From: Candidatus Hydrogenedentota bacterium
Lineage (GTDB): Bacteria > Hydrogenedentota > Hydrogenedentia > Hydrogenedentales > SLHB01
Assembly (NCBI GenBank): GCA_963668025.2
Contig: CAXXTH010000017.1
Location: forward strand, 960,001 to 1,024,000
Reading direction: 5' to 3'
DNA length: 64,000 bases
Shown: positions 7,149 through 37,525 of the stretch, one piece after another
Layout: every line of letters begins with the position of its first letter
Position numbering within the stretch: the stretch's first letter is position 1
Made by a program: the position numbers and the translations under genes
The notes under the pieces: model-generated
What the model saw: only the letters and a program-made list of their open reading frames with translations
Told to the model about the DNA's origin: nothing
Databases searched by the model: none

Positions 7149-7151
7149 TCC

Positions 7152-7323
7152 CAACCACGAATAGACACCAATCAACGCCAATGTAGAGCGGCATTCCTGC
7201 TATGCACTTTTTCTGGGCATCATCAGCGTAATCGGTAGAAAATCAGAACTGGTATTATTGGAGAGCATTGGAGCTCATTCGTGGTTCAAAATCCGGATCT
7301 TTGCTTGCGGCCATACCGCGCTG
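7152..7323. repeat. Inverted array of tandem units (AACCACGAAT type) plus the GCCGCAANCAAA motif
   Basis: AACCACGAATAGACACCAATCAACGCCAATG ... CATTGGAGCTCATTCGTGGTT. Positions 7300-7323 read CAGCGCGGTATGGCCGCAAGCAAA on the minus strand. Confidence 0.7.
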
Positions 7324-7351
7324 CGAGAATTTGTGGGCGTTTGAGCACTAG

Positions 7352-7537
7352 CTCAACTTTCGCAGTTAGTGGTTGGATTTGCTGTGAACAGGGGTAAATC
7401 GCATCCATAAGCTTTCATACGTCCAGCAAAATGAATGAGGGCGGTTTCGCCGCCTATGAAAACAGCGGTGTAGTGAAGACTTTTGATACTCGATCCAACA
7501 AAATCAACCACTTACAAAAATAACTGCGGAAGTTGGG
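7352..7537. mobile_element. MITE (186 bp) with IS1380-like terminal IRs
   Basis: CTCAACTTTCGCAGTTA ... TAACTGCGGAAGTTGGG, flanked by CTAG and TTAA. No ORF. Confidence 0.65.
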
Positions 7538-21277: not shown

Positions 21278-23169
21278 GTGTGCCAAGCATGGCGCGGATC
21301 TAAGGGGTGTAAGTCCCCTGCAAGCCCTGATGGTGGGAATTGCTAGCCAAGAGCAAGGGCGTCGCCGCGAGGCGGGGTCTGGAGGAAGCAGGAGGCAAAA
21401 GTCGGACTCGACGCACAGAAACCGGATAGAAGGCCGGGGTGGCGGGGCAAGCCAGCAATGGATGGCGACGCCCAATAACCATTCGGACACACCTTGGTAA
21501 ATCCGGCGAGGCCCGGCGGAAAGAGGCGCGTCTTACCTTGGGAGACCTGTTCATCTGTCTGGAAGAGCCAGACTAGCGGGATGGCAACATGTCGCGAGGG
21601 GTGGGCAGGAGTCAGCCGAGGCCATAATACCCGCAAGGGGAAGGGCCGAATCGATCATTCAAGGAGCAGCATTGAACGTCTCGTGGGATAGGGAGCGGCA
21701 GGAAGTAGCAGGTTGCCAGATGGAGTTCCCACTGGAGTCGGCTTGCCACGGCGCAATCGGAGAAGGCGGAACCGAATCGGATGCGTTCGAGGCGCGGCAA
21801 CTATCCCCGGCGGCGAACAAGAGGCGAGCCTTGACGCAAGACTTGATGGAACGGGTCGCGAGTCTTGCGAACCTGACGGAAGCGGTACGCCGGGTGCAAC
21901 GGAACAAAGGCGCGGCGGGTGCGGACGGCATGAGCGTACGCGACCTGAAGCGTTGGTTTCCGGAACACTGGCGGGGACTGCAAGAGGAACTGACGGCAGG
22001 GCGCTACCGTCCCCAACCGGTGTTGGGAGTGCAAATCCCCAAGCCGGGCGGGGGGATGCGGCAACTGGGCATTCCGACGGTGGTGGACCGAGTCGTGCAA
22101 CAAGCGCTCTTGCAGGCTCTCGAACCGCTTCTAGACCCGGCCTTCTCGGAAAGCAGTTATGGATTTCGTCCAAGGCACAATGCACATCAGGCGCTGCGGC
22201 AAGCCAGCACGTACGTAAGCGAAGGCCGCTGCATTGTTGTGGACATGGACCTGGAAAAATTCTTCGACCGGGTCAACCACGACATCCTGATGGCGCGCGT
22301 GGCGCGGCACGTGTCAGACAAACGCGTACTCCGACTCATCCGCTGGTTTCTTGAAGTCGGCATGATGCAGAACGGCGTATGCATCGAACGATACGAAGGG
22401 ACCCCGCAAGGCGGTCCTCTATCGCCGCTGCTGGCCAACCTGCTCTTGGACGACCTGGACAAGGAGTTGGAGAAACGAGGGCATCGTTTTTGCCGCTATG
22501 CGGACGACTGCAACATTTACGTGCAGACGATACGCGCGGGAGAACGTGTCCTGACATCGGTCACGCAGTTCCTTGAGGGGAAGCTGAAACTACGGGTGAA
22601 CCGCGAGAAGAGCGCGGTGGCGTTCGTGGGAGAGCGGAAATTTTTGGGTTATCGCTTGCTGGGTGGGGGGCGATTGGGCATCGCGCCCAAGAGCCTCGAC
22701 CGGGCGAAAGACCGCATCCGCGACATCACGCGACGCAACCGCGGCGACGCCAAAGTGCGCCAGATGATTGAGGAGCTCAACAGCTTCCTGAGCGGCTGGA
22801 TAACCTACTATCGGTTTGCCGAAGCAAAGGGCCATCTGGAACGCCTCGGGGAATGGATGCGGCGCAAACTGCGCTGCGTCATCCTCAAACGCCTCAAGCG
22901 CACGAAAACCATAGCGGACTTCCTTAGAAAACTAGGCGTGCCGCAATTTCAGGCGTGGATACTCGCAGGGTCCGGGAAGGGCTGGTGGCGCAAAGCGGGG
23001 AGTCCTCCCGCGCAACACGCCATGGACAAACAATGGTTCGCGAAACAAAAACTGATAGACCCGGTTCAACGGTACGAAACGTTCAAAAATGACCGAAACC
23101 GCCGTGGTACCGAGCAGGTATGCCCGGTGGTGTGAGAGGGGGGGACCGTGAGGAACCCCCCTACTCGAT
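21278..23169 (+). mobile_element. Group IIC intron
   Basis: 5' GTGTG 4 nt after a terminator. Domain V/VI-like 3' end ACCGCCGTG...CGGTGGTGTGAGAGG...CCTACTCGAT. Encodes a reverse transcriptase. Confidence 0.92.
21720..23135 (+). CDS. ltrA: Group II intron reverse transcriptase/maturase (no endonuclease domain)
   Basis: NKGAAGADG, RQLGIPTVVDR, DLEKFFD, GTPQGGPLSPLLAN, YADD, GWITYY. Start codon uncertain. Confidence 0.93.
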   Translation: MEFPLESACHGAIGEGGTESDAFEARQLSPAANKRRALTQDLMERVASLANLTEAVRRVQRNKGAAGADGMSVRDLKRWFPEHWRGLQEELTAGRYRPQPVLGVQIPKPGGGMRQLGIPTVVDRVVQQALLQALEPLLDPAFSESSYGFRPRHNAHQALRQASTYVSEGRCIVVDMDLEKFFDRVNHDILMARVARHVSDKRVLRLIRWFLEVGMMQNGVCIERYEGTPQGGPLSPLLANLLLDDLDKELEKRGHRFCRYADDCNIYVQTIRAGERVLTSVTQFLEGKLKLRVNREKSAVAFVGERKFLGYRLLGGGRLGIAPKSLDRAKDRIRDITRRNRGDAKVRQMIEELNSFLSGWITYYRFAEAKGHLERLGEWMRRKLRCVILKRLKRTKTIADFLRKLGVPQFQAWILAGSGKGWWRKAGSPPAQHAMDKQWFAKQKLIDPVQRYETFKNDRNRRGTEQVCPVV

Positions 23170-23216: not shown

Positions 23217-24611
23217 TCACTTCAATGCCGGAAGGCTGGCGGCGGCGATGGATTGGCCGACCCGGCGCGCCTTCTCGTCGGGGAGCTGCACGTTGATGCG
23301 CGCGGCTAATTCGGGGAATTCCCCTTTCAACACTTCCATCGCGCCATCGACGAGCAAGTCGCCGCCCCGGCCCGAGGTGCAGCGCCCGAGCACGAGTATG
23401 TGGTTCAACGCATAAAAATCCGCGTAATGGGCGATGCCGTATCCCAGGTAGTATCCCATGCTGCGCCAGATATCCGTCGCGCCCGCCTCCCCGGCTTCGA
23501 GTTTCGCTTGCACGATTTTGAGGCGTTCCGCGTCGGTGATGTCCGTGGGCAGTTCGATGCCCACCTTCGGCGCGAGTCGGAACACGCATTGCTGCGAGAA
23601 ATACAGCGCGCCTACGCCGGCGTCTTTGGACCATTCGTCGGCGGGCGCTTCTGGATTGTAGTCGATGGGTGCAAAGGCCAGTTCATTGAGCCAGCCAGTG
23701 ATGTTGCCGTCCATGGTCACATAGCCGCCCGCCTCGCTCGAACCCAGGGCGATGCCTAGCACGCCGTTGTCTTCGAGCGACATCGAACCGGCCAGCGCGG
23801 TCACTTCGCCATCATTCACCACATCGAAGGGCACGCCGAACTCCTTGCCCAGGCGGAGAAACATCGAGCGCACTTCGTCGAACCGGTCTTTCGGGATGCC
23901 CCGGAACAACGAGGCGATCATGGGGCGGTTGTTGATGTAGACGCCCGCACTGCTGCCGCCGATGGCGTCGACACGCGGCATCTTGGACGCCGCCGTGAGG
24001 AGTGCGGTTTTAATCTCGTTATAGTGGTAACTGGGGTCCGTGTGTTTGCGCGGCTCCCACACGACCTCTTCGCTGTAAACGGCCTGCCCGTCGATGACGG
24101 CGGACACCTTGCGGTCCGATGCGCCTAGATCAAAGCCGATGCGGCAGCCTTCCAGGTGGCGGCCCAGGGCTTGCGTGGTCTCGTGTTCAGGCGGCACATC
24201 CTCCGCCGTACACGAGACAACCTCGAAGGTCCGCTCGTAGACATCCTCGCCCATGAAATGATAATCGAAAGCCTGCGAGCCATCGGCGGCATAGCACTGG
24301 GCGATATACGCCCCGATGCTGGCCGGGCCGCCCACGTAGACCTTACACCCGCCGCGCTGCCAAAGCAGGAATTTCACGATGCGCTCGACATACCGCAGAT
24401 TGGCGGTGGCGCGGGGATGGCCCTCGGGAAACACCTTCGTTTCATAGCGCGATACCGAGCCATCGGACCGTTCTAGGCCCAGTACCAGCGGCGCGCCGCC
24501 CTCTCGATTCACTTCTTCGAGAAAGGCCCGGTTCGCCAACACGGCGGGACGAAATCCAGGATCCAATGGCGGTACAAAACGAGGCTCTACAAGTTTGAAT
24601 GCATCCAACAT
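23217..24611 (-). CDS. ROK-family sugar kinase-like protein with N-terminal extension
   Basis: IGFDLGAS, GGSSAGV, VVNDGEVTALAG, ALGSSEAGGY, NEL. Confidence 0.85.
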   Translation of the reverse strand: MLDAFKLVEPRFVPPLDPGFRPAVLANRAFLEEVNREGGAPLVLGLERSDGSVSRYETKVFPEGHPRATANLRYVERIVKFLLWQRGGCKVYVGGPASIGAYIAQCYAADGSQAFDYHFMGEDVYERTFEVVSCTAEDVPPEHETTQALGRHLEGCRIGFDLGASDRKVSAVIDGQAVYSEEVVWEPRKHTDPSYHYNEIKTALLTAASKMPRVDAIGGSSAGVYINNRPMIASLFRGIPKDRFDEVRSMFLRLGKEFGVPFDVVNDGEVTALAGSMSLEDNGVLGIALGSSEAGGYVTMDGNITGWLNELAFAPIDYNPEAPADEWSKDAGVGALYFSQQCVFRLAPKVGIELPTDITDAERLKIVQAKLEAGEAGATDIWRSMGYYLGYGIAHYADFYALNHILVLGRCTSGRGGDLLVDGAMEVLKGEFPELAARINVQLPDEKARRVGQSIAAASLPALK

Positions 24612-25050
24612 GTCATAGGGCTCCTTATGATGATTCAGTTAAAAGAGGTTAAACGGTGAAACGATAGCATAAAATAGCAGCGCGTATCATACCGCGAAGC
24701 GGTTTGGCGATAAATGCAACCATTTGCCTGCTCTGATGTCGTTGCGCTGAAATAAAAACACGGCACCCACTACGGACAAGGTCCATATGGTGACGCCCAA
24801 TCACTTGGAATGGCGGATAGATGGCCGTCAAGAGTAGTTTTAGCGCAATGAGAAGATTTGCGAATCCGTTATCTATTTGAGATAGATCTTGGTGGTGCCC
24901 CATAAAACCACTTGAATCACCCCGGCGTCCTGGGGATAATCACGACATCAGGTGCTCCATTTTTACGCCGCCACCTGATTCACTTCTAAAACTAGCGCCG
25001 CCATGCGGAAAGCAGGCGAAGGCGCGGCCTTTGCCGGGAAGGGAATAACG

Positions 25051-26058
25051 ATGCGTTTACAGCATTGGATCACTCTTACGTTCATTGTGGTTTTACCCCT
25101 AGGTTGCACTGCGCCCGAACAAGCGGGCAGCCCAGCGGGAAAAGCTGTGCAATCAAGTGAAAAGGAAGCCGCTGCACCTTCCAATCAAGCCGCCGCGAAA
25201 AAGCCTCGGATTGCCCTGGTGATGAAGTCGCTGGCGAATGAATTCTTCAAGACGATGGAGCAAGGCGCGCGCGACTATAACGCTGAACACGCGGATGAAT
25301 TCGAGCTTGTGGTGAACGGGATCAAAAACGAAGAAGACATCAGCGGCCAGGTGGCGCTGGTCGAGCAGATGATGGCCATCAAAGTCGATGCGCTGGTAAT
25401 CGCCCCCGCGGACTCGAAGGCCTTGGTGTCGGTGCTTGAACGTGCTACGAAGAGCGGCATCAAGGTGGTGAACATCGACAATAAGCTGGATGATGCGATC
25501 CTTGCGGAGCGGAATTTGCAGATCCCCTTTGTGGGCCCGGATAACCGGAAGGGCGCCCGGCTGGCCGGTGAATACCTGGCGGCAAAACTCGAACCGGGCG
25601 CGGAGGTGGCCATCATCGGCGGGATTCCCAGCGCCTTCAACGCGATCCAGCGCAAGAACGGGTTCGAAGATGCGATGGCGGCAGGGAAAATGGCTATTGT
25701 CGAAAGCCAAAGCGCCAATTGGGAGATGAGCAAGGCGAGCCAAGTCGTCTCGGGTATCGTAAGCGAACACCCCGGCCTGAAAGCGTTGTTATGCGCAAAC
25801 GACAGCATGGCCTTAGGCGCGGTGGCCGCGCTTGAAGACGCTGGCAAACTCAAAGATGTCCTCGTGGTCGGCTATGACAACATTAGCGCGGCCCAGGCGC
25901 TTGTGCGTGAAGGCAAAATGCTCTGCACCGTAGACCAGCATGCCGATAAGCTGGCCGTGTATGGTATTCAGTATGCGTTGGAGCTTCTGAAAACAGGCAC
26001 ATCGCCCACCAACCAGGAAACGGCTGTAGAAGTGGTGTCGGCTGAGGACCTCGCGTGA
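25051..26058 (+). CDS. Sugar ABC substrate-binding lipoprotein (RbsB-like)
   Basis: LGC lipobox, LANEFF, VGPDN, ANW, CANDSMALG, GYD. Confidence 0.92.
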   Translation: MRLQHWITLTFIVVLPLGCTAPEQAGSPAGKAVQSSEKEAAAPSNQAAAKKPRIALVMKSLANEFFKTMEQGARDYNAEHADEFELVVNGIKNEEDISGQVALVEQMMAIKVDALVIAPADSKALVSVLERATKSGIKVVNIDNKLDDAILAERNLQIPFVGPDNRKGARLAGEYLAAKLEPGAEVAIIGGIPSAFNAIQRKNGFEDAMAAGKMAIVESQSANWEMSKASQVVSGIVSEHPGLKALLCANDSMALGAVAALEDAGKLKDVLVVGYDNISAAQALVREGKMLCTVDQHADKLAVYGIQYALELLKTGTSPTNQETAVEVVSAEDLA

Positions 26059-27029
26059 ATCAATTGAATTTGCCTCAGCCAAAGGAGGGAACGGCAAACC
26101 CTCGATGGAGAGCGCGCCTTGGCAGTGTCTTTGGCATGGCCTTTGCCCTCATAGGACTCATCATTTTGTTTGGCGTGCTCACGGACCACTTCCTGAGCAT
26201 GGGCAATGTGCGCACCATCGCCAATCAGATTCCGGCGCTGTTAATTGTTTCCGTGGGCATGACCTTCGTGCTGATTTCCGGAGGCATCGACTTATCCGTC
26301 GGTTCTGTTTTGGCGCTATCCAGCGGTGTGATGGGTGTGGCGCTGGCGCGTTACTCTGTTCCGCTCTTTCCTGCGCTGCTGCTTGCGGTGTGTGCTGGAC
26401 TGCTATGCGGCATGATGAACGGGATCATCGTGGCGTGGTGGCGGCTGCCCTCCTTCATCGTCACCTTGGGCATGCTCGAGGCGGCGCGCGGGGCCGCATA
26501 CCTTGTGACCGATTCACAAACGCAGTACATCGGCTTGAAGATCGAAAGGGTCGCGGAGGCGGGTGTGGCGGGCATCTCGGTTCCCTTCCTTGTGGCGCTT
26601 CTTGTGGTGATTTCTGGCCATGTCATTCTGACTAAAACCGTACTAGGACGCCATCTGGTCGCGACCGGGTATCGTGAGGAGGTGGCCCATTATAGCGGCG
26701 TCAAAACGCGCGGCATCCACTTTTTCGTATTCTCGCTCGCGGGCGCTTTGACCGGGCTTGCGGCGATCATGCACACGGCCCGGTTATCCGCGGTGGACCC
26801 GAATGCGGGCTTGGGGCTGGAGCTCGAGGCGATTGCGGCGGTTGTCATCGGCGGCACGAGCCTGGCTGGCGGCCGGGGTTCCGTGCTGCGCACCACCTTT
26901 GGCGTCCTAATCATCGCGGTGCTGGGAAATGGCCTGGCGCAAGTAGGCGCTCAAGAACCCACCAAACGATTGATAACAGGCCTCGTAATCGTCGCCGCAG
27001 TCATCCTGGATCATTACCGGAAAGATTAA
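26055..27029 (+). CDS. Sugar ABC permease (RbsC-like)
   Basis: GMTFVLISGGIDLSVGS, PSFIVTLGM, ELEAIAAVVIGGTSLAGGRGS. Confidence 0.93.
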   Translation: MNQLNLPQPKEGTANPRWRARLGSVFGMAFALIGLIILFGVLTDHFLSMGNVRTIANQIPALLIVSVGMTFVLISGGIDLSVGSVLALSSGVMGVALARYSVPLFPALLLAVCAGLLCGMMNGIIVAWWRLPSFIVTLGMLEAARGAAYLVTDSQTQYIGLKIERVAEAGVAGISVPFLVALLVVISGHVILTKTVLGRHLVATGYREEVAHYSGVKTRGIHFFVFSLAGALTGLAAIMHTARLSAVDPNAGLGLELEAIAAVVIGGTSLAGGRGSVLRTTFGVLIIAVLGNGLAQVGAQEPTKRLITGLVIVAAVILDHYRKD

Positions 27030-27105
27030 CATCCGCAAATAAGCTTTGGAGTGAAGATCGAATAGTTCTACAGTGATGATGGGTATCTGCAAATAAGTTC
27101 CCGCA

Positions 27106-27390
27106 TTATGGTGAATATTCGCAAAAAGCAGAGTCAGGACCATGGCCCTGAAGCGGTCCAGCTAAAAAATTCGGACTACCTTGTGCGAGTGAGGAAGCGA
27201 GTGGCGCGAGAAAGGCCTCCACTGCCTCTACAATATCGCGGAATGAAGCAGGAATGTGATCTTGTTGCAGGCGTTTCCTGAAGGCCGTCCATTGAACCTG
27301 TTTGGCGTCGTTGAATGGCCTTTTATCGCTCTTGGCGCGGTTGAGGAGGCGCTGGTGAACGGATGCGGACACATTTTTTATGGGCTTCAT
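27106..27390 (-). pseudogene. AbiEii-type nucleotidyltransferase toxin remnant (central deletion)
   Basis: N-terminal KNVSASVHQRLLNRAK..RPFN is fused directly to C-terminal KQVQWTAF...; the GG-type nucleotidyltransferase core is missing. Confidence 0.75.
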
Positions 27391-27980
27391 ATACTCGTTT
27401 CCAGGTAGGGACGCATCACTTTTTCGACTCGGCAGATTTTCGCGTATTTGAGTAGTTCACCAAAATCGAATTTCTTACGTGTTTTGTAGAGTTTTAAGGC
27501 CTCCAGCACCACGTCCATACCGATTTTATTTCGGAACTTGAAGCAATCGGCGAGTGTTTTTTCAGGAGTATAGATTTTGACGGCTACGCCGTCGATTTGA
27601 TGTTCCTCAATACCCGCGCGCTATGCCTGGCCGGAGAATCGGTGAACGAGGAGAGGCGGGTAATCAAGCGATGGCGCCCGTGACTCCCTGGAAATCGCTA
27701 CGGAGACGTTATGCGGAACTTGTGTCGTGATATCATGGTAAGCCAGCGCTGAGACGAGGCAGATGATTGCGTTCGGGAAACGCAGTCCAGTCGTCGCCAG
27801 GTCGGGATTACTGATGGGTGGAAGCTCCGCCAGACGATATACTCCTCTGCTTACTGGTTCAATCGCTCCTCTGTCCCTAAGTGAATAGAGCATATAGCGA
27901 GTGATCCCAAGCTCAATGGCTTCGCTCATTCGTAGTTGGCCGCCATATGAACGGAAAATATTTTCTGGATTCTCTTTCAT
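27387..27980 (-). pseudogene. AbiEi type IV antitoxin with an internal amber stop
   Basis: VSRGVYRL, ICLVSALAYHDITTQVP, then TAG at 27621-27623. The frame continues as RAGIEE...YTPEKTLADCFKFRNKIG...RPYLE to a TGA overlapping the toxin ATG. Confidence 0.85.
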
Positions 27981-27989
27981 GCCTGGTCC

Positions 27990-28035
27990 CAGACAAATTG
28001 TCGCCACTTATACACAAGTGGTAACAATTTGTCTG
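27990..28035. promoter_or_regulatory. Inverted-repeat operator upstream of abiEi
   Basis: CAGACAAATTGTCGCCACTT-ATACAC-AAGTGGTAACAATTTGTCTG. Confidence 0.75.
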
Positions 28036-28164
28036 ATTTGCACCGAAAAATCAAGAAGAAAACAAGAAAAAATGAAAACTGGCGCGGCACATACAGACTT
28101 TATCTATTACATCCATTCACGCATCCGGCTTTTCACTCCGTGTGTGGAATCTGTATTTCACTTA

Positions 28165-29052
28165 TTACGTGGGCAGGGTGGAAGCGGAGATCAGCGTATC
28201 TTCGAATCGCAGCGTGCTGGATTGCCGGTAGTGGGAGGGAGACAGCATAAAACACGCTTTGAACTCCCGGCTGAAATGAAACGGATTGCAGAAGCCGGTT
28301 TGTTGGGCGATTTGGGCAATGGATTCGCTGCTGGACATGAGCAGTTTACAGGCCTCGTTCAATCGGATTTGTTTGACATAGTCCATGGGAGAGCATTTCA
28401 TATGCTCTTTGAAAAAGGCGTGGAACCGCGAACGCGACATGTGGGCCAAGCTGGCCAGATGCGCCACATCCATCGGCTCGGCCATATGCGCCCGGATGTG
28501 GGAGAACACCGAAGTCAGCCGTTCCGAGTGTTGCAGGATATTCAGGCTCTCGGGCCGCATGGGCGCACTGGCGCAAAGAATGCGCAGAATCGCATATGCT
28601 TGTTCCTGGCGCCAAGCCAGCCAATACAATGAATCGTCAATCTCTTGAGGATTCACATCCAGCAGGTTCTCCACGACCTTGCCCATTTGGGCGGCTTTGC
28701 TGGCCTCCAAGCACAGGGGCATGTCCAGCAGCGAGGTGAGGTCCACCGTGCCGAATAACGTGAAATGAAAATGAATCCAGCGCGCCCCCATCCAGCCGCC
28801 GCGCCCGGGTTCCGCGTGATGCACAATCGTCATGATACGGTTGGCGGGTGTCAAAAAGGCTTCTCCAGGGCGAATGGCCTCGGTGCGCCCATCACAGGTG
28901 ATTTCATATGCGCCGAACAGCACTTGCGCGAAAATCGTGCAGGGAACAATTTTCTGATGGACCAAGCCATCGGGAAGTTGCTGTGATTGGCCTGGAGCCA
29001 GAAAATGCAGCGTTAAAGCATCAGGCGGAATCGCGGATATCGAAAATTTCAC
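28165..29052 (-). CDS. AraC-family transcriptional regulator
   Basis: Cupin-like N-domain; LAHMSRSRFHAFFK...SPMDY...RLNEACKLL...IAQQTGFCNPFHFSREFK. Start codon approximate. Confidence 0.93.
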   Translation of the reverse strand: MKFSISAIPPDALTLHFLAPGQSQQLPDGLVHQKIVPCTIFAQVLFGAYEITCDGRTEAIRPGEAFLTPANRIMTIVHHAEPGRGGWMGARWIHFHFTLFGTVDLTSLLDMPLCLEASKAAQMGKVVENLLDVNPQEIDDSLYWLAWRQEQAYAILRILCASAPMRPESLNILQHSERLTSVFSHIRAHMAEPMDVAHLASLAHMSRSRFHAFFKEHMKCSPMDYVKQIRLNEACKLLMSSSESIAQIAQQTGFCNPFHFSREFKACFMLSPSHYRQSSTLRFEDTLISASTLPT

Positions 29053-29067
29053 GGCGGTATTCCTTAA

Positions 29068-29115
29068 GTGGCATGGCCTTCCCGGCCATGCGCATGGGCG
29101 AGACGCCCATGCTAC
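29068..29115. repeat. GTRGCATGG-type REP doublet
   Basis: GTGGCATGGCCTTCCCGGCCATG-CG-CATGGGCGAGACGCCCATGCTAC. Related units at 42340-42362, 53071-53093, 59226-59267 and 63056-63082. Confidence 0.75.
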
Positions 29116-29288
29116 GGAATAAAGTTCATTGGCTCCATCCTATCAGAGCCAGCAAGGAAACGGAAACCACTTTTTAGAAAACAAGACTCTCAGATATATC
29201 TTCGAGATTCGCGGGCATTCTCATATAACTCGTTGTCTCTTATAATCATATATAGATTCTCAGCCTTAAAATCATAGGAGAGTGCATC

Positions 29289-31568
29289 ATGAGCAGCAAT
29301 GGACACGAACTCGACCGGCGGGATTTCATTAAAACGATGGGCGCGGGTTTGGCGTTAGGCGGGGGAGTGCTGGCAATGAACACGGCGCAAGCGAGCGCGC
29401 CCAGCCGCGTATCCGTATCGGATTGGAGCCGTCCCGCGCCGTTTGCCACCCCGCATCATTTGTCGGACCAGACGCATGTATTGGCCCAGCGCGGATTGGC
29501 GGGCGAACATGGCCGGGCGCTCGTGAATGCCGATTTTAAGATCGATGAGCAAGTGACGAAAGCCCTTTCACCGGATATGCATTATGCCCATGCGGTCCGT
29601 TTGATGGCCGAAAAAGCGCCCTTGCGGGTATTGCCAGGAGAACGCATCATCGGCTCGGCGACGCTGCGCGAGTCTTCCACCCATAAGACGCCGGTGTTCG
29701 AGCAATACAGCACGAGCCACCTGACCATCGGCTTCGATCAAGTGCTTCCGATGGGATATAAAGGCCTGCGGGAGAAGATCCAGGAACGTCTTTCACGCGG
29801 CGGCCTGGATGAGCAGGGAACCGAATTGCTGCACGCGATGCAGATGTGCCTCGATGGGGCTGCAATCTGGAACCAACGCCATATCGAGTTGCTCGGCCAG
29901 CTCGCCACCCAGTCCAGCGGCCCGGAACAAGCCAATTATCTTCATTTACGAGACATCTTACAGCGAGTGCCGGAAAATCCGCCCGCGACCTTCGAGGAAG
30001 CCGTGCAATCGCTTTGGTCCATGTTCGCCTTTCAACGCTTGTGCGGCACCTGGTCCGGCATTGGCCGCATTGACCAAATGCTGGGTGGTTATCTGAAGAA
30101 AGATTTGGCGGAAAAACGCATCACGCTCGATGAGGCGCGTGAACTGCTGGCCCATTTCTGGATCAAAGGCACGGAATGGACCGGGGCTAATCCAGGCCCT
30201 GGTTCGGGCGACGCCCAATTTTATCAGAATGTGATCCTGGCGGGCGTTGATGCGCAGGGCCAGCCGGTGCTCAATGATGTGACTTATCTGGTGCTGGATG
30301 TCGTGGAAGAGCTGCATATCAGCGATTTCCCGATTGCCGTGCGCGTGAGTGAAAACACCCCGAAGAAGCTGCTGCGCCGCGTCGCGGAGGTGCAGCGCCA
30401 TGGCGGCGGAATTGTAGCGCTCTACCAGGAAGACGTGGTTATCGCCGGGCTCGTCAAGCTCGGGTATCCGCTCGAAGAAGCGCGTAAATTCGCCAATGAC
30501 GGCTGCTGGGAAGCGCAAGTGCCGGGAGCCACCTGTTTCTCTTATGTGGCCTTTGATATGTTGGGCATATTGCAGCGGGCGTTGAAAGTGGACAAGCCGG
30601 AAGAGGCCGTCGCCGAGTTTGCCGATTTTGAAGGATTTTACACGGCATTTCGCACGGAAATGACCCGTGTGCTTGACGAAATCGCGAATTTGTCGGATGG
30701 CCACGCCATGGCGGATCCCAAGACAGGGCCGCCCACGCCGCTGGTCTCGATGTTCATCGACGATTGCATCGAGCGCGGACGGGGCTATTACAATCGCGGG
30801 GCGCGGTACAATGTCGTATCGCCTCACGCGGGCGGCATGGCCAACGTCGCCAATAGCCTGCAGGTGATTAAGCGCCTGGTGTATGAAGAGAAGGCAATCA
30901 CGCTGCCGGAATTAGTCGCCACATTGCGTTCGGACTGGAAAGGCCAGGAACCGATGCGGCGGTTGATCCTGAACCGGTTTGAATTCTATGGCAATGACAA
31001 TGAGCAAGCAGATGCCATGATGCAGCGCTTGTTCAACGATTACACGGATTTGGTGTGGCGCACGCCGGAGCGCAATGGCGTGCTCCGTCCGGCGGGGATC
31101 AGCACGTTTGGGCGTGAGATCTTTTTCTCCCACGAGAGCTATTTTGGCTGCACGCCCCGGCTGGCGACGGCCGACGGCCACCACCAGGGTGAATTCTTGG
31201 CCACGAATTTCTCGCCCTCTCCCGGAACCGATCAAAAGGGCCCATCCGCGGCGTTGAATTCTTACTGCAAAATGGATTTCAGCCGGGCTCCCAATGGTGC
31301 GACATTGGAACTGAAGATTCATCCGTCCTGCCTTCAAGGCGATGCGGGCGTCGATGCGCTAGTCGGGCTGATGCGCGGTTTTATCCGCCAGGAAGGGTGG
31401 TTCATGCACGTCGACGTCGTGGACTCCGCCATGCTGCTCGATGCCCAAAAGCATCCCGAGAAGTATCCAAATTTGCCCGTGCGCGTCGCTGGCTGGTCCG
31501 CGCGGTTTGCCACGCTCGACAAGGAATGGCAAGACATGGTCATCAATCGCACGCAGCAGATCATTTGA
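29289..31568 (+). CDS. Glycyl radical enzyme (PFL-like) with an N-terminal Tat signal peptide
   Basis: DRRDFIK-h-region-AQASA; GIGRIDQML; Cys loop DGCWE; Gly loop VRVAGWS near the C-terminus. Confidence 0.93.
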   Translation: MSSNGHELDRRDFIKTMGAGLALGGGVLAMNTAQASAPSRVSVSDWSRPAPFATPHHLSDQTHVLAQRGLAGEHGRALVNADFKIDEQVTKALSPDMHYAHAVRLMAEKAPLRVLPGERIIGSATLRESSTHKTPVFEQYSTSHLTIGFDQVLPMGYKGLREKIQERLSRGGLDEQGTELLHAMQMCLDGAAIWNQRHIELLGQLATQSSGPEQANYLHLRDILQRVPENPPATFEEAVQSLWSMFAFQRLCGTWSGIGRIDQMLGGYLKKDLAEKRITLDEARELLAHFWIKGTEWTGANPGPGSGDAQFYQNVILAGVDAQGQPVLNDVTYLVLDVVEELHISDFPIAVRVSENTPKKLLRRVAEVQRHGGGIVALYQEDVVIAGLVKLGYPLEEARKFANDGCWEAQVPGATCFSYVAFDMLGILQRALKVDKPEEAVAEFADFEGFYTAFRTEMTRVLDEIANLSDGHAMADPKTGPPTPLVSMFIDDCIERGRGYYNRGARYNVVSPHAGGMANVANSLQVIKRLVYEEKAITLPELVATLRSDWKGQEPMRRLILNRFEFYGNDNEQADAMMQRLFNDYTDLVWRTPERNGVLRPAGISTFGREIFFSHESYFGCTPRLATADGHHQGEFLATNFSPSPGTDQKGPSAALNSYCKMDFSRAPNGATLELKIHPSCLQGDAGVDALVGLMRGFIRQEGWFMHVDVVDSAMLLDAQKHPEKYPNLPVRVAGWSARFATLDKEWQDMVINRTQQII

Positions 31569-31575
31569 ACCATAC

Positions 31576-32478
31576 ATGAACGAAGCGCTTGTTTTTCAAA
31601 TTCAGCGGTTTTGCACGCACGATGGGCCCGGTGTTCGTACCACGGTGTTCCTCAAAGGCTGCCCGTTGCGCTGCGCGTGGTGTCATAACCCTGAATCGCA
31701 ACGCTTTGAAAAAGAGTTATCGTATTCACCGGCTTTATGCATTGGTTGTGGGGCATGCGTCCAGGCATGCCCCGCAGGCGCGCATCGCATCGTAGAGGGG
31801 CGGCATGTATTGGACCGCAGCCGCTGCCAAAGCTGTTTTCGATGCGTCCAGGCCTGTTCCGCCAGGGCCTTGGAGGCCGTGGGCCGGGAGCAATCAATCG
31901 AGTCCATCATGAAGGAAGTCGAGTCGGACCGCGTCTATTACGAAGAAACAGGGGGGGGATTGACCGTCTCCGGCGGCGAACCGCTGGCTCATTTTCCCTT
32001 TATATACGCCCTGCTGGCCGAAGCGCACAAACGAAAAATCCATACCTGCGTCGAAACCAGCGGATATGCCCCGCCAAACAGAGTACTAAGCCTGCTGGAT
32101 GTAGTTGATTTGTTTCTCTGGGATATCAAGGACACTGAGCCCATCCGCCATCAGGCAATGACAGGCGTTTCTCTCGATACGATTTTGGATAATCTGCGCC
32201 TGGTGGACGAAGCTGGGGGGCATACGCGGCTGCGTTGCATCTTGGTGGATGGGGTGAACATGGCCATGCCGCATATCGAAGGAGTAGCCCGGCTGGCGCT
32301 ATCGTTGAAACATTGCCAGGGTTTAGCCCTATTGCCCTACCACCCCATGGGGGATGCGAAACTGGAGCGAATCGGACGCACGCGATCTGGATTGAATCTA
32401 GGCGCACCTTTTCCCAAGGCCCTCGATGAAGCACGCGCTCGTTTAGCCGATCTGGGCGTAGCTTGCTTTGATTCATAA
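31576..32478 (+). CDS. Glycyl-radical activating enzyme (radical SAM with ferredoxin insert)
   Basis: HDGPGVRTTVFLKGCPLRCAWCHNPES, two CxxCxxCxxxC motifs, GGLTVSGGEP, VETSG. Confidence 0.95.
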   Translation: MNEALVFQIQRFCTHDGPGVRTTVFLKGCPLRCAWCHNPESQRFEKELSYSPALCIGCGACVQACPAGAHRIVEGRHVLDRSRCQSCFRCVQACSARALEAVGREQSIESIMKEVESDRVYYEETGGGLTVSGGEPLAHFPFIYALLAEAHKRKIHTCVETSGYAPPNRVLSLLDVVDLFLWDIKDTEPIRHQAMTGVSLDTILDNLRLVDEAGGHTRLRCILVDGVNMAMPHIEGVARLALSLKHCQGLALLPYHPMGDAKLERIGRTRSGLNLGAPFPKALDEARARLADLGVACFDS

Positions 32479-32689
32479 GTGGCGCTGAAAAGCCCTTCTT
32501 CGGGAACGGCTTCCATCCGATGTAAACGCCTTTGGAACAAAGAAACGGATATCTACAAATCCGTTACCGTTTGCATAAAAAGCAGAATTATGCTAAAATA
32601 TAAAAGCATGAGCGCAGTAGCTCATGGAGTCTTGTCTCCAGCATTTCCGAACGAGTCATACCAGAGACTTATATGGAAAGGTCAATCCC

Positions 32690-34411
32690 ATGAAATCAAA
32701 GCGCCCACTTAAACAATTCTTTTCTATCTTGGGCATCATCATATTGATGCTGTCCTTGAGCCCCCTTTTAGGTGCGGGTTGTAATCTGGTACAAACGACG
32801 CGCCAGCAAACCGTCTGTCCAATCGCAGTGCCAGCAGGCGCGCCGGAAATCCCGCCCTCCTACGTGCCCGAGTATGAGCTTTACGGCTACAGCGCCTGGA
32901 AGACAGGCCCCGGTGTGGACGATGGCCGGAGGTTCGACCTGATGCGGGATGGCTACACAGGTTCACCCAATCGTGCGCGGCTCCTGTCTTTCTTCTCGCT
33001 AAGCGATATTCATATCACAGATAAAGAATCGCCCGCCCAGGTGGTCTACTTCGGATGGAGCGCGCCATTTGGGACAACGGGGCTTTTATCGCAAGCCTAT
33101 TCTCCCGTTATGCTTTCCACCACGCAAGTCCTGGACGCCGCAATCAGCACCATCAATTGCATGCATCTTCAGACTCCGTTTGATTTTGGCATAACGCTCG
33201 GTGATATGGCCAACGCTTCCCAATATAACGAGCTTCGATGGTTCATTGACGTGCTTGATGGTAAATACATCACGCCAAGTTCTGGCGCTCATCTTGGCGC
33301 TGGCTATATTGATTATCAGACGCCTTTCCAGGCCGCTGGGCTTAATAGCTCGATTCCCTGGTATGCGACTGTCGGCAACCACGATCAGTTCTGGATGGGC
33401 GTCTCCTATCCAAGTGATAAAATTCGGGACACCCTTAAGGGCGGCGAAGTCCTTAACATGGCCGATGATCCCTTTGCAATCAATGCCTCAGAAGGCAATG
33501 GCGTGTATACAGGCGTGATCGACGGCACGACGATATATGGAGATGTGATCAAGGCTGGACTAACAGGTGATTTTGCATCAGCCCCGACCGTTGTTGCCGA
33601 CGAGAGCCGCCATTCCCTTACGACGGCGGACTCTTCCACGGCGGAATTCATGGAAACCTTCTTCGACACTACATCGTCTCCCGTGGGGCATGGGTTCAGC
33701 CAGGCCAATCTAGACGCCGATTTTGCCTCCTACACCTTCGAGCCAAAGACGGATTTGCCGCTCAAAGTCATCGTGCTGGATGACACCTGCAAAACGATAA
33801 GCCCTGACGGCGGGCCGTCCTATTATGGTTCAGGCTGGCTCGATGAGGAGCGCTACGCCTGGCTCACCAACGAACTACAGAAAGGCCAGGACGAAGAGAA
33901 GCTCATGATCATCGCGACCCATATCCCCGTCAATCCGCAAGAGGATCTCTACAAGACGGACCGGGAAGCTCAATTCTATCCAGAATCCTATCAAACCGAC
34001 GAAGAATTAATCGCCACGCTCAACAACTACCCGAATCTCATCATGTTGATTGCGGGCCATCGCCACCTGAACACCGTGACTCCGCAGCCATCTCCAGACC
34101 CCGCTCATCCAGAAAATGGTTTTTGGGAGGTGGAAAATTCCTCGTTGCGAGACTTCCCCCAGCAATTCCGTACATTCGATATCCGCCGCAACAAAGACAA
34201 CACCATTTCCATCCTAGTGACCAACGTGGACCCCATTGTTGAAGAAGGAAGCCCTGCCGCGAAGTCACGCGACTATGCGGTCGGCGCATCGCGGACATTC
34301 GGCAAAACCGCCCTCGACGACACGTCATCGCATGCGTACAATGCCGAGTTGGTCAAGCAATTAACCCTCGACATGCAAGAAAAAATCGCTTCTTACGGAA
34401 CAGCGCTATAA
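32690..34411 (+). CDS. Metallophosphoesterase lipoprotein (TIGR03768-like)
   Basis: LGAGC lipobox, SDIHITDKESP, LGD, GNHD, THIP, AGHRH, SSLRDFPQQFR. Confidence 0.85.
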   Translation: MKSKRPLKQFFSILGIIILMLSLSPLLGAGCNLVQTTRQQTVCPIAVPAGAPEIPPSYVPEYELYGYSAWKTGPGVDDGRRFDLMRDGYTGSPNRARLLSFFSLSDIHITDKESPAQVVYFGWSAPFGTTGLLSQAYSPVMLSTTQVLDAAISTINCMHLQTPFDFGITLGDMANASQYNELRWFIDVLDGKYITPSSGAHLGAGYIDYQTPFQAAGLNSSIPWYATVGNHDQFWMGVSYPSDKIRDTLKGGEVLNMADDPFAINASEGNGVYTGVIDGTTIYGDVIKAGLTGDFASAPTVVADESRHSLTTADSSTAEFMETFFDTTSSPVGHGFSQANLDADFASYTFEPKTDLPLKVIVLDDTCKTISPDGGPSYYGSGWLDEERYAWLTNELQKGQDEEKLMIIATHIPVNPQEDLYKTDREAQFYPESYQTDEELIATLNNYPNLIMLIAGHRHLNTVTPQPSPDPAHPENGFWEVENSSLRDFPQQFRTFDIRRNKDNTISILVTNVDPIVEEGSPAAKSRDYAVGASRTFGKTALDDTSSHAYNAELVKQLTLDMQEKIASYGTAL

Positions 34412-34422
34412 AGCCATCTCCC

Positions 34423-34457
34423 TTGATGCGGCAGGCCAAACCCACCTGCCGCATCAA
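34423..34457. terminator. Hairpin between convergent genes
   Basis: TTGATGCGGCAGG-N9-CCTGCCGCATCAA. Confidence 0.75.
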
Positions 34458-34474
34458 TCTTTATATATCCCCAG

Positions 34475-35977
34475 TTATTTTACCTCCAGCGAGCCGTCAT
34501 CGATCTGCTGATTGATATCGAGAGGCAAATAGGAATACAAATCGGCATTCTTGAGAAAGAACCGGACCTTTTTGTCTTTGTCCGCCAGCTCTTCGGGGAA
34601 CTTAGTGGTCTTCCAGGTGAGCGTGTGCCGCACGGAGTCCCCGGTGAAGGAGATACATTCCTGGCGCGAGAAGCCGGGAATCACTTTGTTTTTCCGGTCC
34701 AACAATTCCGCCGCTACGTAGCCGTCCGGGCCGCAGCACTTGGCATTGATCAAGACTTGCGGCGTGTTGAAAACCTCCCGGCGGCTGATCAGCCAGCCTT
34801 CTTGTCCACCGGCATGCATCGAACAAAAGCCATCCAGGCGAAGCGTAGCTAGGCCGATAGCGCCATTGGCCCTGGGGCCGTCATGTTTTTGGTCGAACCC
34901 GGAATAGTAAAAAAACAATTGGTCTCCCATAAGAATAGGTGCGCGGGCGGTGAACGCCATCTGCGAGTCGAACGCATCGGGGGAACCAAGGCCGATGAAC
35001 GGCTTGCGCTCGGGCGGGCGCGTCCATTGGAGCAGATTCCAGCTCCACGCGAATTGCACATCGACGGTAAGCGGGCTTCCTTCCTGGGCTTCGTACATGA
35101 CGTCGGGGTCGGTGTATTGGCCATACTTGATCCACCGGGCGTGATAGACCCAAGGCAGGCCGATATACAATCCCTGATACGGGAAAACCGGCATGCCGTA
35201 GATTTGCGTGGCGTCTGGATCAAGGTCATCCGCGCCGAAGACCGCGCCCTCGACCGGCTTATGCCACTTGAGGCCATCTTCCGACACGGCGACGCCAACG
35301 GCCCGGTGTCGGCGATTCGCTGTCTTGTACGTGGCCGTATACCGGCGCTGATAGGGATCATAGAAAAAATTAGTCACATCGGACGTGCCGAACAGATGTT
35401 GTTGCTCGGGCGGGCGATTCCAGTCCCAGTGCAAGCCATCTTCCGAATAGGCAACCGACGCGCCTGCTTCACCCGCATAGCCATACATGGCCCACTGCTT
35501 GTTAGGCGCAGGCGGAGCGGGCACGCGGATCACGCTGGGTATGTGGCAACTGCCGCCCGGAGCCACGATGTTGTTGTCCGTGGAGCCTTGGCAATCCACT
35601 ATGCCGAGTTTGGGCTTTGTCCAATGAATGCCGTCCTGGGATTCCGCATACGATACATCCGCGTAGTCGTTTCCAATCCCCTGATACCACATTCGCAGCT
35701 TTCCATCGTCCCAAAGAACGGTGCCGTAGACATATGGCCCCCACCCCTCCCAGGGATGTTCTTTGCGGATGATAGGATTCTCCGCATATTTCTCCGCGCC
35801 ATGAAACACTCGCGCAAGGCCATCGGACTCCTCGAGCACCATGGCGTCCAGGAAAAGCCTGCGGTAAGGCGGCTCGCCCGCTAGAGGATCGCTTGCTTCA
35901 AGCGCCCATGCTTGGCTGGCCCAAACCGCCATTTGAAAAAACAAGACACTCATGATTCTAGGGGCATACCTGTTCAT
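34475..35977 (-). CDS. Secreted five-bladed beta-propeller glycoside hydrolase-like protein
   Basis: Signal peptide, repeated Asp-boxes (ESQDGIHW, YSEDGLHW, VSEDGLKW), IGLATLRLDGF. Confidence 0.75.
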   Translation of the reverse strand: MNRYAPRIMSVLFFQMAVWASQAWALEASDPLAGEPPYRRLFLDAMVLEESDGLARVFHGAEKYAENPIIRKEHPWEGWGPYVYGTVLWDDGKLRMWYQGIGNDYADVSYAESQDGIHWTKPKLGIVDCQGSTDNNIVAPGGSCHIPSVIRVPAPPAPNKQWAMYGYAGEAGASVAYSEDGLHWDWNRPPEQQHLFGTSDVTNFFYDPYQRRYTATYKTANRRHRAVGVAVSEDGLKWHKPVEGAVFGADDLDPDATQIYGMPVFPYQGLYIGLPWVYHARWIKYGQYTDPDVMYEAQEGSPLTVDVQFAWSWNLLQWTRPPERKPFIGLGSPDAFDSQMAFTARAPILMGDQLFFYYSGFDQKHDGPRANGAIGLATLRLDGFCSMHAGGQEGWLISRREVFNTPQVLINAKCCGPDGYVAAELLDRKNKVIPGFSRQECISFTGDSVRHTLTWKTTKFPEELADKDKKVRFFLKNADLYSYLPLDINQQIDDGSLEVK

Positions 35978-36374
35978 TTGGCTCAATCCTCCTTTGGAAT
36001 CCCATTTTCTGATCCTCAATAGTGGCCGATAGTTCCCCTGGAGATTCATTGCGCGGCCTGGAGATGGCGCTTATGCAGGCATGGCCCTAGAAGTGGCCAG
36101 GGTCAAAATGAAACAAAAACGGAGACAGCCCAGTTTCCACCATCTCGGTTCGTTTTAACTGTACGGCATAATGACGCATATAGCGGCTCATGTTTTTAGG
36201 TAATTGGCGGCGGGCGTCCTTTGTTTTTTGGGGTGTTGTGGATTCGGCCAAGGAATTTTCACCAGCATGCCCTTCCGTATGCCCGGTGATTTCGGTGTAA
36301 AACAAGCCTGAAAATAGGTATGATAACGATACTGAAAATCCATGGGGTACTAACCAGGCGCGTGAATTCTATTA

Positions 36375-37523
36375 ATGCGGCTTATTCACACATCAGACAT
36401 ACATTTAGATGCGAGCTTCGCCATGCCTGGCGCGCCAGCGGGATTTGGCAACCGGCGCCGCCAAGCGGTGCGTGATGTGTTCCTGCGCATTTTACAGCGG
36501 GCGAAGGAATGGCCTGCCGACGCCGTGCTCATTGCGGGCGATTTGCTGGATTATGAGCGCGCCAGCCGGGATACCGTGGTGTTTTTGCAAGAAGAATTCA
36601 AACGCCTTGCGCCTATCCCGGTCTTTTTAGCGCCAGGCAACCATGATCCTTATACGGTGATTTCACCCTATGCCACCGAAGAATGGCCTTCGAATGTAAC
36701 GATTTTCCACCGGTCTGAATGGACGGCGCATGCGCTGGCGGCGATTCCGCTTACAGTACATGGCTTCGGTTTTGACGGCCCGGATATTTCGGTGAATCCA
36801 TTCGGGAATTTGCAAATACCGCGCGATGACCGCGTCCATGTCGCGGTGGGCCACGGCACCGCCATGGGAAGCGCGCCTTCTGAAATGGGCGCGTATGCGC
36901 CGTTCTCGCCCGCGCTCGCCGCGGATCACCGCTTGGCGTATCTGGCCTTGGGCCATTTCCATGGCATGAAGGCCATCGAGGCACCGTTCGGCACCGTGAT
37001 GTATTATTCGGGAGCGCCCGAAGGGCATGGTTTCAACGAATGCGGCCTCCATTATTTCCTGGAAGTGGAGCTCGATGCGGGGCGCGTGCAGGTGAATCCC
37101 GTGCCTTCCTGCCAGTCTCTATATGAGGTCTATACCGTGGATTGCTCGGCCTTTGTGTCGAAACAGCAAGCCATTGACGCCATTCGCGCCCTAGCGCCGC
37201 AAGATGGCCGGAGCCGCATCGCCCGCATTTGGCTCACGGGTTCCTGCGCGGATGCGTGGCGTGGCGAAGCGCTGGTGATCCGGGACAGTGTCGCGCCATT
37301 GTTCGAGTATCTTGATTTGGTGGATGAACTCGAGCCCGCCGAGGATTTTGAAATGCTGGCGCGGGATGAAACCAGCCTGGGCGTCTTCGTGCGGCGCATG
37401 CTTAAGGAATCGGACATGGTGGCGGAGCCCGCCAAGCGGCGCATGCTGGCGCGCGCCCTCGAGGTGGGCGTGGCGGCCTTCCGGGATCGGCCGCTGCCGA
37501 TTCGCGGCGCGGGAGGGGAATAA
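36375..37523 (+). CDS. Mre11/SbcD-like (YhaO) DNA nuclease
   Basis: HTSDIHL, AGDL, PGNHD, GHG, YLALGHFH, YSGAPE. Confidence 0.92.
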   Translation: MRLIHTSDIHLDASFAMPGAPAGFGNRRRQAVRDVFLRILQRAKEWPADAVLIAGDLLDYERASRDTVVFLQEEFKRLAPIPVFLAPGNHDPYTVISPYATEEWPSNVTIFHRSEWTAHALAAIPLTVHGFGFDGPDISVNPFGNLQIPRDDRVHVAVGHGTAMGSAPSEMGAYAPFSPALAADHRLAYLALGHFHGMKAIEAPFGTVMYYSGAPEGHGFNECGLHYFLEVELDAGRVQVNPVPSCQSLYEVYTVDCSAFVSKQQAIDAIRALAPQDGRSRIARIWLTGSCADAWRGEALVIRDSVAPLFEYLDLVDELEPAEDFEMLARDETSLGVFVRRMLKESDMVAEPAKRRMLARALEVGVAAFRDRPLPIRGAGGE

Positions 37524-37525
37524 CC

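Follow-up and report, generated by a model that had tools for sequence, protein, structure and literature searches.

Can a glycyl radical enzyme (GRE) work outside the cytoplasm? That is, could a radical on the protein backbone be generated in the cytoplasm, passed through the pore of the twin-arginine translocation (Tat) system and used outside? The question is raised by a locus in a 64,000-nucleotide (nt) stretch of DNA from a Candidatus Hydrogenedentota bacterium (GenBank assembly GCA_963668025.2, contig CAXXTH010000017.1, positions 960,001 to 1,024,000 of the forward strand), which we call the window and in which coordinates are counted unless a contig or locus is named. The locus is a three-gene module consisting of an AraC regulator, a GRE and a radical S-adenosylmethionine (SAM) activase (Table 1). 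To our knowledge, characterized GREs have all been described as cytoplasmic or microcompartment-bound. An initial reading of the DNA and its open reading frames (ORFs), referred to here as the sequence-only reading, had seen a Tat leader on the window GRE and proposed an exported system. What appears to be new is a family of eliminase-like GREs with a conserved Tat leader and, in one sub-form, a lectin-like insert. The leader-bearing clade counts over 100 GREs and spans at least five phyla.

The sequence-only reading had also held that export would mean a new compartment for glycyl-radical chemistry. This agrees with a June 2026 GRE review (Imrich et al., PMC13450708), whose compartments chapter treats microcompartments alone. 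A whole-text term search of the review found none of periplasm, signal peptide, twin-arginine, Tat, membrane, exported, secreted, extracellular or localization. In the open full-text literature, we found no description of a signal peptide on a GRE; similarity-network tables could list such a cluster unremarked.

The leader and its conservation

The GRE product begins MSSNGHELDRRDFIKTMGAGLALGGGVLAMNTAQASA. Residues 9-15 read D-R-R-D-F-I-K, to be compared with the Tat consensus S/T-R-R-x-F-L-K, and are followed by a Gly-rich hydrophobic region (h-region; GAGLALGGGVLAM) and a c-region, NTAQASA, with the candidate cleavage sites AQA and ASA. The best 12-residue Kyte-Doolittle mean of the h-region is 1.78 (family mean, 1.63). 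The NCBIfam model TIGR01409 (TAT_signal_seq) scores 19.7 bits over residues 8-33 and passes its cut-off of 16.7; the Pfam Tat model PF10518, taken up below, does not reach its own. The motif, the Gly-rich h-region and the AxA sites are those pointed out in the sequence-only reading. An AlphaFold2 model built on a 70-sequence alignment has a mean predicted local distance difference test score (pLDDT) of 90.6 and exceeds 90 from about residue 50. Residues 1-49 are modeled with low confidence and include a short helix at 10-22; such an N-terminus would match the expectation for a flexible signal peptide followed by a linker. Leaderless relatives start 4-17 residues ahead of the (R/H)LSD..TH.LA motif of the core.

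The ATG of the GRE is the first ATG, GTG or TTG past the upstream in-frame stop, with no start codon further upstream, and the AGGAG ribosome-binding site reported in the sequence-only reading is present ahead of it. We searched for homologs over 5.8 billion clustered proteins, obtained 2001 matches and examined the best 120. Leader presence was scored in the best 119 of the roughly 2000 matches and in 68 genome loci. An RR-x-[hydrophobic] motif occurs within the first 45 residues in 91 of the 119 best non-query homologs (56-81% identity), so the leader is conserved among the closest homologs. Three of the 28 without the motif begin within the h-region and are truncated gene calls; in the matching genome locus L118, the upstream frame reads MNRRDFMKQATGG... 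(MNRRDF). The rest are a mixture: some lie on short contigs, some start past the core motif and some are truly leaderless. We compared the six codons of RRxFxK with those of 12 homologous loci (Armatimonadota, Planctomycetota, Hydrogenedentota, Bacteroidota and the window's own relatives) and found 1-3 synonymous and 1-2 non-synonymous changes per comparison. Within the motif, variation across the family is concentrated at the D/E and I/L/V/M positions. This pattern of codon and residue variation is expected of a translated peptide under selection, and the RRxFxK peptide is kept across at least five phyla. Judged on these grounds, the leader is a real, translated and family-conserved Tat-type signal.

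These data also bear on a possible annotation artefact, in which translation would start at M17 or M30 and the leader would be untranslated 5' sequence. In-frame Met codons do exist at both positions, and two homolog records (P0014 and P0017) are called from internal Mets. We consider this extremely improbable given the synonymous codon changes under a motif conserved in at least five phyla, the AGGAG ahead of the first ATG and the MNRRDF upstream of the mis-called L118. The downstream start that the sequence-only reading had kept in view (MNTAQ) is therefore not needed.

A logo of 104 RR leaders reads [G/A][M/I/L][N/S/D]-R-R-[D/E]-F-[L/I/V]-K and then a stretch rich in Ala, Ser and Gly; F occurs in 93% at +3, K in 74% at +5 and G in 71% at +14. 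A small-x-small motif follows the h-region in all 104. In the window GRE, signal-peptidase cleavage is likely at A33-Q-A35 before S36. We favor this site because Pro38 would follow the alternative A35-S-A37 site, and Pro at +1 disfavors cleavage by signal peptidase I. If the protein were exported by Tat and its leader not cleaved, the result would be a signal-anchored GRE on the outer face of the inner membrane, as with Rieske proteins. The evidence for export applies to such an anchor equally. The GGG of the h-region, with its Gly at +14, is unusually conserved, Pro38 follows one of the two AxA sites, and a variable linker of 15-25 residues lies past the leader. We nevertheless regard an anchor as quite unlikely, since the small-x-small motif is universal among the RR leaders, the A33-Q-A35/S36 site has no Pro at +1, and a stable transmembrane helix would usually be longer and poorer in Gly than this h-region of about 13 residues.

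A full HMMER scan of 1.84 billion representatives at 50% identity sets the family clearly apart. About 20 representatives reach 495 bits or more, with alignments that start near query residue 50; for ordinary GRE eliminases in the same scan, scores stay at or below about 360 bits and alignments start no earlier than about residue 140. We then placed 204 family rows and six outgroup GREs in an outgroup-rooted FastTree phylogeny computed on core columns only, starting at residue 56. Every one of the 105 RR rows and the 16 single-Arg rows (121 leader-bearing rows) falls within one 148-row clade with Shimodaira-Hasegawa-like support of 97. The remaining 56 rows (Bacillota, Lentisphaerota, Verrucomicrobiota and Poribacteria) are basal, and none has a Tat-like motif. 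The simplest history suggested by this quick tree, which has several long branches, would be a single gain of the leader followed by several losses. The window's genome encodes a second Tat-leader GRE, a paralog with 66% identity (C9:128978-131254; L086 8975-11260) that has its own leader, activase and AraC gene (L086 7603-8487). We also note a leaderless protein of 875 amino acids (aa), P0124, in which the PFL-like match starts only at residue 271, some 150 residues further in than that of the window GRE; its extra N-terminal region has no Pfam match.

A sub-form of the family carries a further domain. In 39 rows, an insert of 212-215 aa past residue 174 matches Laminin_G_3 (LamG; Pfam E 1e-16 to 1e-21), a member of the ConA-like lectin/glucanase superfamily, and brings the proteins to about 960 aa (P0010, P0055 and 37 more rows; L019, L029 and L033 are of this form). 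The RR leader is present in 38 of the 39, and the other is an N-truncated record. A model of the insert (pLDDT 68.5, core 80-95, from three sequences) matches extracellular ligand-binding LamG and pentraxin domains; it also matches the heparin-binding thrombospondin-N domain and a putative carbohydrate-binding protein of Bacteroides. A family member occurs in 10 of 40 relatives of the window's genome. In eight of these ten the match begins near residue 175, as in LamG forms, and seven of the eight have open frames of 954-1065 aa. The LamG form is thus commoner than the insert-free form among the window's relatives.

Catalytic signature and reaction class

The window GRE matches the PFL-like domain PF02901 (E 2.2e-106) and, over residues 638-740, the Gly_radical domain PF01228 (E 9.5e-25). 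Its two catalytic loops, DGCWE (residues 404-408) and RVAGWS (732-737), are intact, as the sequence-only reading had stated. G-C-W-E is invariant in all 204 family rows, and R-[IVL]-x-G is found in 202; the other two are records without a C-terminus. His144 is likewise invariant, both in the 70-sequence alignment and in 204 of 204 rows. Since the signature is invariant in leader-bearing and leaderless classes alike, the leader-bearing GREs appear to be still selected as radical enzymes.

Searched by sequence, the PDB gave propanediol dehydratase (5I2A, E 1.7e-89), glycerol dehydratase (1R8W, E 6.2e-83) and HypD (6VXC) as the best matches. A Foldseek search with the AlphaFold2 model gave the same ranking (5I2G at a template modeling (TM) score of 0.81, then 1R8W), with TM scores of about 0.8 at 24-27% identity. 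None of the curated subfamily or equivalog models reaches its cut-off: TIGR01774 scores 356.5 bits against 678.2, the HypD model 342.5 bits against 1100, and all others, including those for CutC and HpsG, are also below. We therefore filed the GRE as a member of an uncharacterized sister family and assigned it to no named subfamily.

The sequence-only reading had observed that the Cys loop holds a single Cys, not the pair of PFL. Alignment and fold place the GRE with the Cys-x-Glu eliminases. It most likely works as a C-O-cleaving 1,2-eliminase, because Cys406/Glu408 and His144 pair with the corresponding residues of propanediol dehydratase and the fold matches. His166 of propanediol dehydratase is presumably equivalent to His164 of glycerol dehydratase. 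According to the review, the CXE motif is kept in all C-O-cleaving GRE eliminases (PMC13450708, section 5.6). For glycerol dehydratase, it assigns deprotonation of the C1 hydroxyl to Glu435 and protonation of the leaving C2 hydroxyl to His164, the proposed proton donor (PMC13450708, section 5.6.1).

The conserved signature has a bearing on two other ways in which the N-terminus could be understood: (i) the protein could be exported without its radical, unactivated or in a non-radical role such as binding, and (ii) the N-terminus could be an encapsulation peptide for a microcompartment. The first would fit a radical that cannot be re-installed outside the cytoplasm, and the second draws on the short modeled helix at residues 10-22, which is superficially similar to an encapsulation helix. 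Radical catalysis is favored by the conservation of Gly735, Cys406, Glu408 and His144 in every leader-bearing row that is complete, and by the dedicated activase encoded next to the GRE. For the second, we searched for bacterial microcompartment shell genes (PF00936) and found none in six of six leader-GRE genomes (the window's own, 93.75% complete, and five others). Microcompartment targeting was rejected on this basis, and we hold this pair of explanations to be very unlikely.

Proposed export and the readings that compete with it

The window's genome (6.1 Mb) has Tat machinery. TatC is encoded at C11:129170-129877 (212 bits), and there are two TatA matches of 63.7 and 25.9 bits, the 25.9-bit one adjoining tatC. 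A crude scan found about 15-20 other ORFs with canonical N-terminal RR leaders in this genome. One ORF within the window itself, at 23217-24611 on the minus strand, encodes 464 aa with a canonical Tat leader, LTRRNFMKASVLSTGALLSGAWA, and has no Pfam match. No dedicated Tat proofreading chaperone gene was evident at the GRE locus. Across genomes, TatC is found in 11 of 11 with a leader-bearing GRE (the window's own, five Bacteroidales and five others) and in one of five with a leaderless GRE.

The activase, by comparison, stays leaderless, as the sequence-only reading had held. In the window its Fer4_12 domain already begins at residue 16, which leaves no place for a leader. The first domain begins at residues 14-16 in the window, at the paralog locus and in 10 of 11 other loci; in the remaining one (L047) it begins at residue 29, probably a start-call artefact.

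We put the probability at roughly 60% that the GRE receives its radical in the cytoplasm, leaves it by Tat and then serves in the periplasm as a C-O-cleaving 1,2-eliminase. The GRE would fold in the cytoplasm, where the leaderless activase, with SAM and reductant, would install the radical on Gly735. The folded and probably dimeric enzyme would then be exported by TatA/TatC through its RRDFIK leader, which would probably be cleaved after A35. In the periplasm, the Cys406 thiyl radical would abstract a hydrogen from a hydroxyl-bearing carbon, Glu408 would deprotonate the hydroxyl on that carbon, and His144 would protonate the leaving -OH or -OR on the neighboring carbon, giving an aldehyde or ketone. 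No SAM would be needed outside the cell, because the radical is regenerated in each turnover; a GRE quenched outside the cytoplasm would not be re-armable. Cytoplasmic maturation by a radical-SAM enzyme followed by export is known for other proteins.

Several points weigh against export. The leader falls short of the Pfam Tat model, PF10518, at 19.0 bits under a gathering threshold of 22.7. The TatC co-occurrence comes from 16 interrelated genomes, mostly metagenome bins of unknown completeness, and is suggestive only, because the genomes are not independent and their completeness is mostly unknown. A radical lost outside the cytoplasm would find neither activase nor SAM nor reductant to renew it, and oxidants reach the periplasm more readily. 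Some nested lineages, among them a 9-row clade (P0032...P0122) and Armatimonadia L015, have lost the leader, which indicates that the GRE can work in the cytoplasm too. Cys content is similar in leader-bearing (mean 10.0-10.4) and leaderless (11.0) forms (p = 0.07), so that Cys depletion, considered as a sign of periplasmic adaptation, was not seen. Fe-alcohol dehydrogenases occur near the GRE in seven loci from three phyla, and the two that were read have no leader, so any downstream step by them would be cytoplasmic. Finally, 17 Bacteroidales orthologs, with L027 included in the count, keep the leader and read S-R-[A/K/S/E/G]-[D/E]-F-L-K, with one Arg only (L013, L009-L012, L014, L016-L018, L020-L022, L024, L027, L047, L057 and L062; among them Alistipes hominis L013, Tannerella and rumen bins). 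By Escherichia coli and plant standards, loss of the second Arg should impair Tat recognition. The single-Arg genomes encode TatC and put a canonical RR on other proteins (five N-termini in A. hominis, three in another bin). Three Bacteroidota rows (L023, L025 and L026) retain RR in the GRE itself.

We asked whether the single-Arg leaders have been rerouted to Sec. Their h-regions are no more hydrophobic than those of RR leaders (1.72 versus 1.63, p = 0.30), so a switch to Sec is not indicated. In one rumen Bacteroidales locus of this set, L017, the cytochrome bd oxidase genes cydA and cydB (5135-7804) lie directly upstream of the leader-bearing GRE, a single case.

The single-Arg leaders could instead mean that the leader is Tat-like and no longer exports, and that it serves in chaperone or activase binding or in membrane association, with the GRE on the cytoplasmic side. 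NarG, a cytoplasm-facing nitrate reductase, has such a vestigial Tat motif. Bacteroidales keep S-R-x-[DE]-F-L-K and the h-region and not the second Arg, and Tat substrates in the same genomes keep RR, which suggests selection on something besides TatC recognition. The leaderless derivatives nested in the clade, the undiffering Cys content, the Fe-alcohol dehydrogenases read as leaderless and a presumably cytoplasmic AraC sensor fit the same idea. We judge it unlikely. The window leader is complete, with RR, F, K, a Gly-rich h-region and AxA sites, whereas the NarG remnant has no comparable h-region or cleavage site; the LamG insert is confined to leader-bearing forms, and none of the 11 leader-GRE genomes is without TatC. 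Tat export remains the most economical reading, with the single-Arg Bacteroidales leaders as its unexplained loose end.

On a bolder reading, which we hold only tentatively and think doubtful, the clade would consist of radical C-O lyases that attack glycans in the periplasm, each enzyme being armed a single time in the cytoplasm before Tat exports it. The thiyl radical might eliminate an -OR group (glycosidic, ether or ester-type) adjacent to a hydroxyl, on sugars or oligosaccharides that the cell is unable to take up. LamG-insert forms might dock onto polysaccharide, and the periplasm might take the place of the microcompartment in keeping the reactive carbonyl from the cytoplasm. If so, the clade would represent a new compartment for GREs and an oxygen-independent, non-hydrolytic means of glycan breakdown.

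Tat export of these GREs, if true, would extend both what Tat is known to carry and where in the cell radical enzymes are known to operate, and would hint at unknown anaerobic chemistry that glycan degraders of gut, sediment and digester perform on substrates outside the cytoplasm. One member belongs to a cultured human-gut species, A. hominis, though with a single-Arg leader. If the GREs are not exported, the family would be a second natural case of a Tat-like leader kept for a non-export purpose.

Surrounding genes and comparison with known systems

We clustered ORFs from 80 loci together with the window and paralog stretches and annotated 123 neighboring proteins. The only recurrent neighbors are the activase, which adjoins a family GRE in 25 clustered loci, and an AraC-type gene, found near it in 22 and mostly upstream and divergent. 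The divergent AraC gene described in the sequence-only reading is present in the window (Table 1). The activase begins 8 nt past the GRE stop codon; with so small a gap the two genes probably share one operon. Its Pfam domains are Radical_SAM and Fer4_12, with ferredoxin-type cluster motifs. A promoter scan gave one good match ahead of the GRE (Table 1), which is weak evidence, as the number of sites in the region is no higher than chance (three versus 2.8 expected from shuffles). No riboswitch or other RNA element was found in 27000-34600 at E <= 1.

Table 1. Features of the GRE locus (positions in the window; + and - denote the strand).
Feature	Position	Strand	Remarks
AraC-family transcription regulator	28165..29052	-	divergent from GRE; HTH_18 E 2.2e-23, HTH_AraC
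Sigma-70-like promoter match, TTCTCA-17-TATAAT	29218..29246	+	43 nt 5' of ATG
AGGAG ribosome-binding site	29276..29280	+	8 nt 5' of start codon; read from sequence
GRE, P0001, 759 aa	29289..31568	+	uncharacterized family nearest C-O-cleaving 1,2-eliminases
Twin-arginine leader, residues 1-37	29289..29399	+	R10-R11 in DRRDFIK, Gly-rich h-region, AxA c-region
RRDFIK codons (residues 10-15), Tat consensus core	29316..29333	+	
Variable linker, residues 38-55	29400..29453	+	joins leader to (R/H)LSD..TH.LA motif of GRE core
His144	29718..29720	+	aligns with His166 of propanediol dehydratase
Cys loop D404-G-C406-W-E408 (CXE motif)	30498..30512	+	aligns with GCVE, Cys438/Glu440 of propanediol dehydratase
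Glycyl radical motif R732-V-A-G735-W-S	31482..31499	+	Gly735, predicted radical site
Radical-SAM GRE-activating enzyme, 300 aa	31576..32478	+	TIGR02494 304.8 bits, cut-off 174
Metallophosphoesterase	32624-34411	+	TIGR03768; lipoprotein-type Sec signal, LGAGC lipobox

Other neighbors are scattered: Fe-alcohol dehydrogenases (the seven loci mentioned above), sulfatases (three loci), assorted glycoside hydrolases and an alginate lyase, and, at one locus, a sugar kinase with a glycerol-3-phosphate dehydrogenase-like (GlpD-like) gene. The paralog is surrounded by genes for an NPCBM-melibiase, a DUF386 protein, a Gfo/Idh/MocA oxidoreductase, a cyclase, a KDPG aldolase and a PfkB kinase. We tried to read the substrate from gene context, and no pathway could be assigned. 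A vicinal diol or a sugar-derived compound is plausible.

The sequence-only reading had drawn hints of a sugar or polyol substrate from genes next to the module. A secreted phosphoesterase is there, with a TIGR03768 match and a lipoprotein-type signal, and so are sugar ABC transporter genes, for a sugar-binding protein and a permease (Pfam; 25003-27029). A link between these genes and the GRE is unsupported, as only the activase and AraC genes recur. The metallophosphoesterase gene is probably not part of the GRE operon, because it lies 146 nt past the activase gene and has a promoter-like site of its own. What had been called a beta-propeller glycosidase could not be confirmed: the ORF at 34475-36049 (524 aa) has a Sec-type signal and no family match in Pfam or NCBIfam.

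Further genes were noted in the window. An AbiEi-type antitoxin-like small regulator (27621-28007, minus strand) has the sugar ABC genes on one side and the AraC gene on the other, and sets the transporter apart from the GRE module. A group II intron reverse transcriptase/maturase with RVT_1 and GIIM domains is encoded at 21672-23135 (+). At 36375-40693 (+), an SbcD-like nuclease precedes a 1055-aa AAA_23/AAA_27 protein, and the two probably form an SbcCD pair. A 1330-aa protein at 42750-46742 (+) combines gingipain-type peptidase C25 domains with a purple-acid-phosphatase N-terminal domain.

Among known systems, the closest are the B12-independent glycerol dehydratase of Clostridium butyricum (1R8W) and the 1,2-propanediol dehydratase of Roseburia inulinivorans (5I2A/5I2G), both C-O-cleaving 1,2-eliminases. 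They share with the window GRE the fold (TM 0.80-0.81), the Gly loop, the CXE loop, the His that protonates the leaving hydroxyl, and an adjacent radical-SAM activase with ferredoxin-like clusters. The window GRE differs in its identity of only 25-27%, CWE in place of CVE, a shorter N-terminal region, its Tat leader and the lack of microcompartment genes. HypD (6VXC) and YbiW/PflD (8ID7, 8ID0) are likewise eliminase-type GREs of similar fold, at about 24% identity; by their entry titles, YbiW and PflD were crystallized with anhydro-sugar phosphates bound. No signal peptide is given for these enzymes in the text of the review (PMC13450708).

GRE microcompartments resemble the arrangement proposed here in that, according to section 6 of the review, a GRE eliminase and its aldehyde product are held outside the bulk cytoplasm (PMC13450708). 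The window's family would differ from them in its compartment, the periplasm, with shell genes in none of the six genomes searched, and in an activase that would stay behind, making re-activation impossible.

Other enzymes matured in the cytoplasm travel by Tat: periplasmic hydrogenases, dimethyl sulfoxide and trimethylamine N-oxide reductases and glucose-fructose oxidoreductase. They have S/T-RRxFLK leaders with a mildly hydrophobic h-region and are exported folded, and some are oxygen-sensitive. By analogy, the window GRE would resemble them in its type of leader and in folding and maturing in the cytoplasm. It would differ in what it carries across the membrane, since its "cofactor" would be a radical on the protein backbone, not a bound metal or nucleotide.

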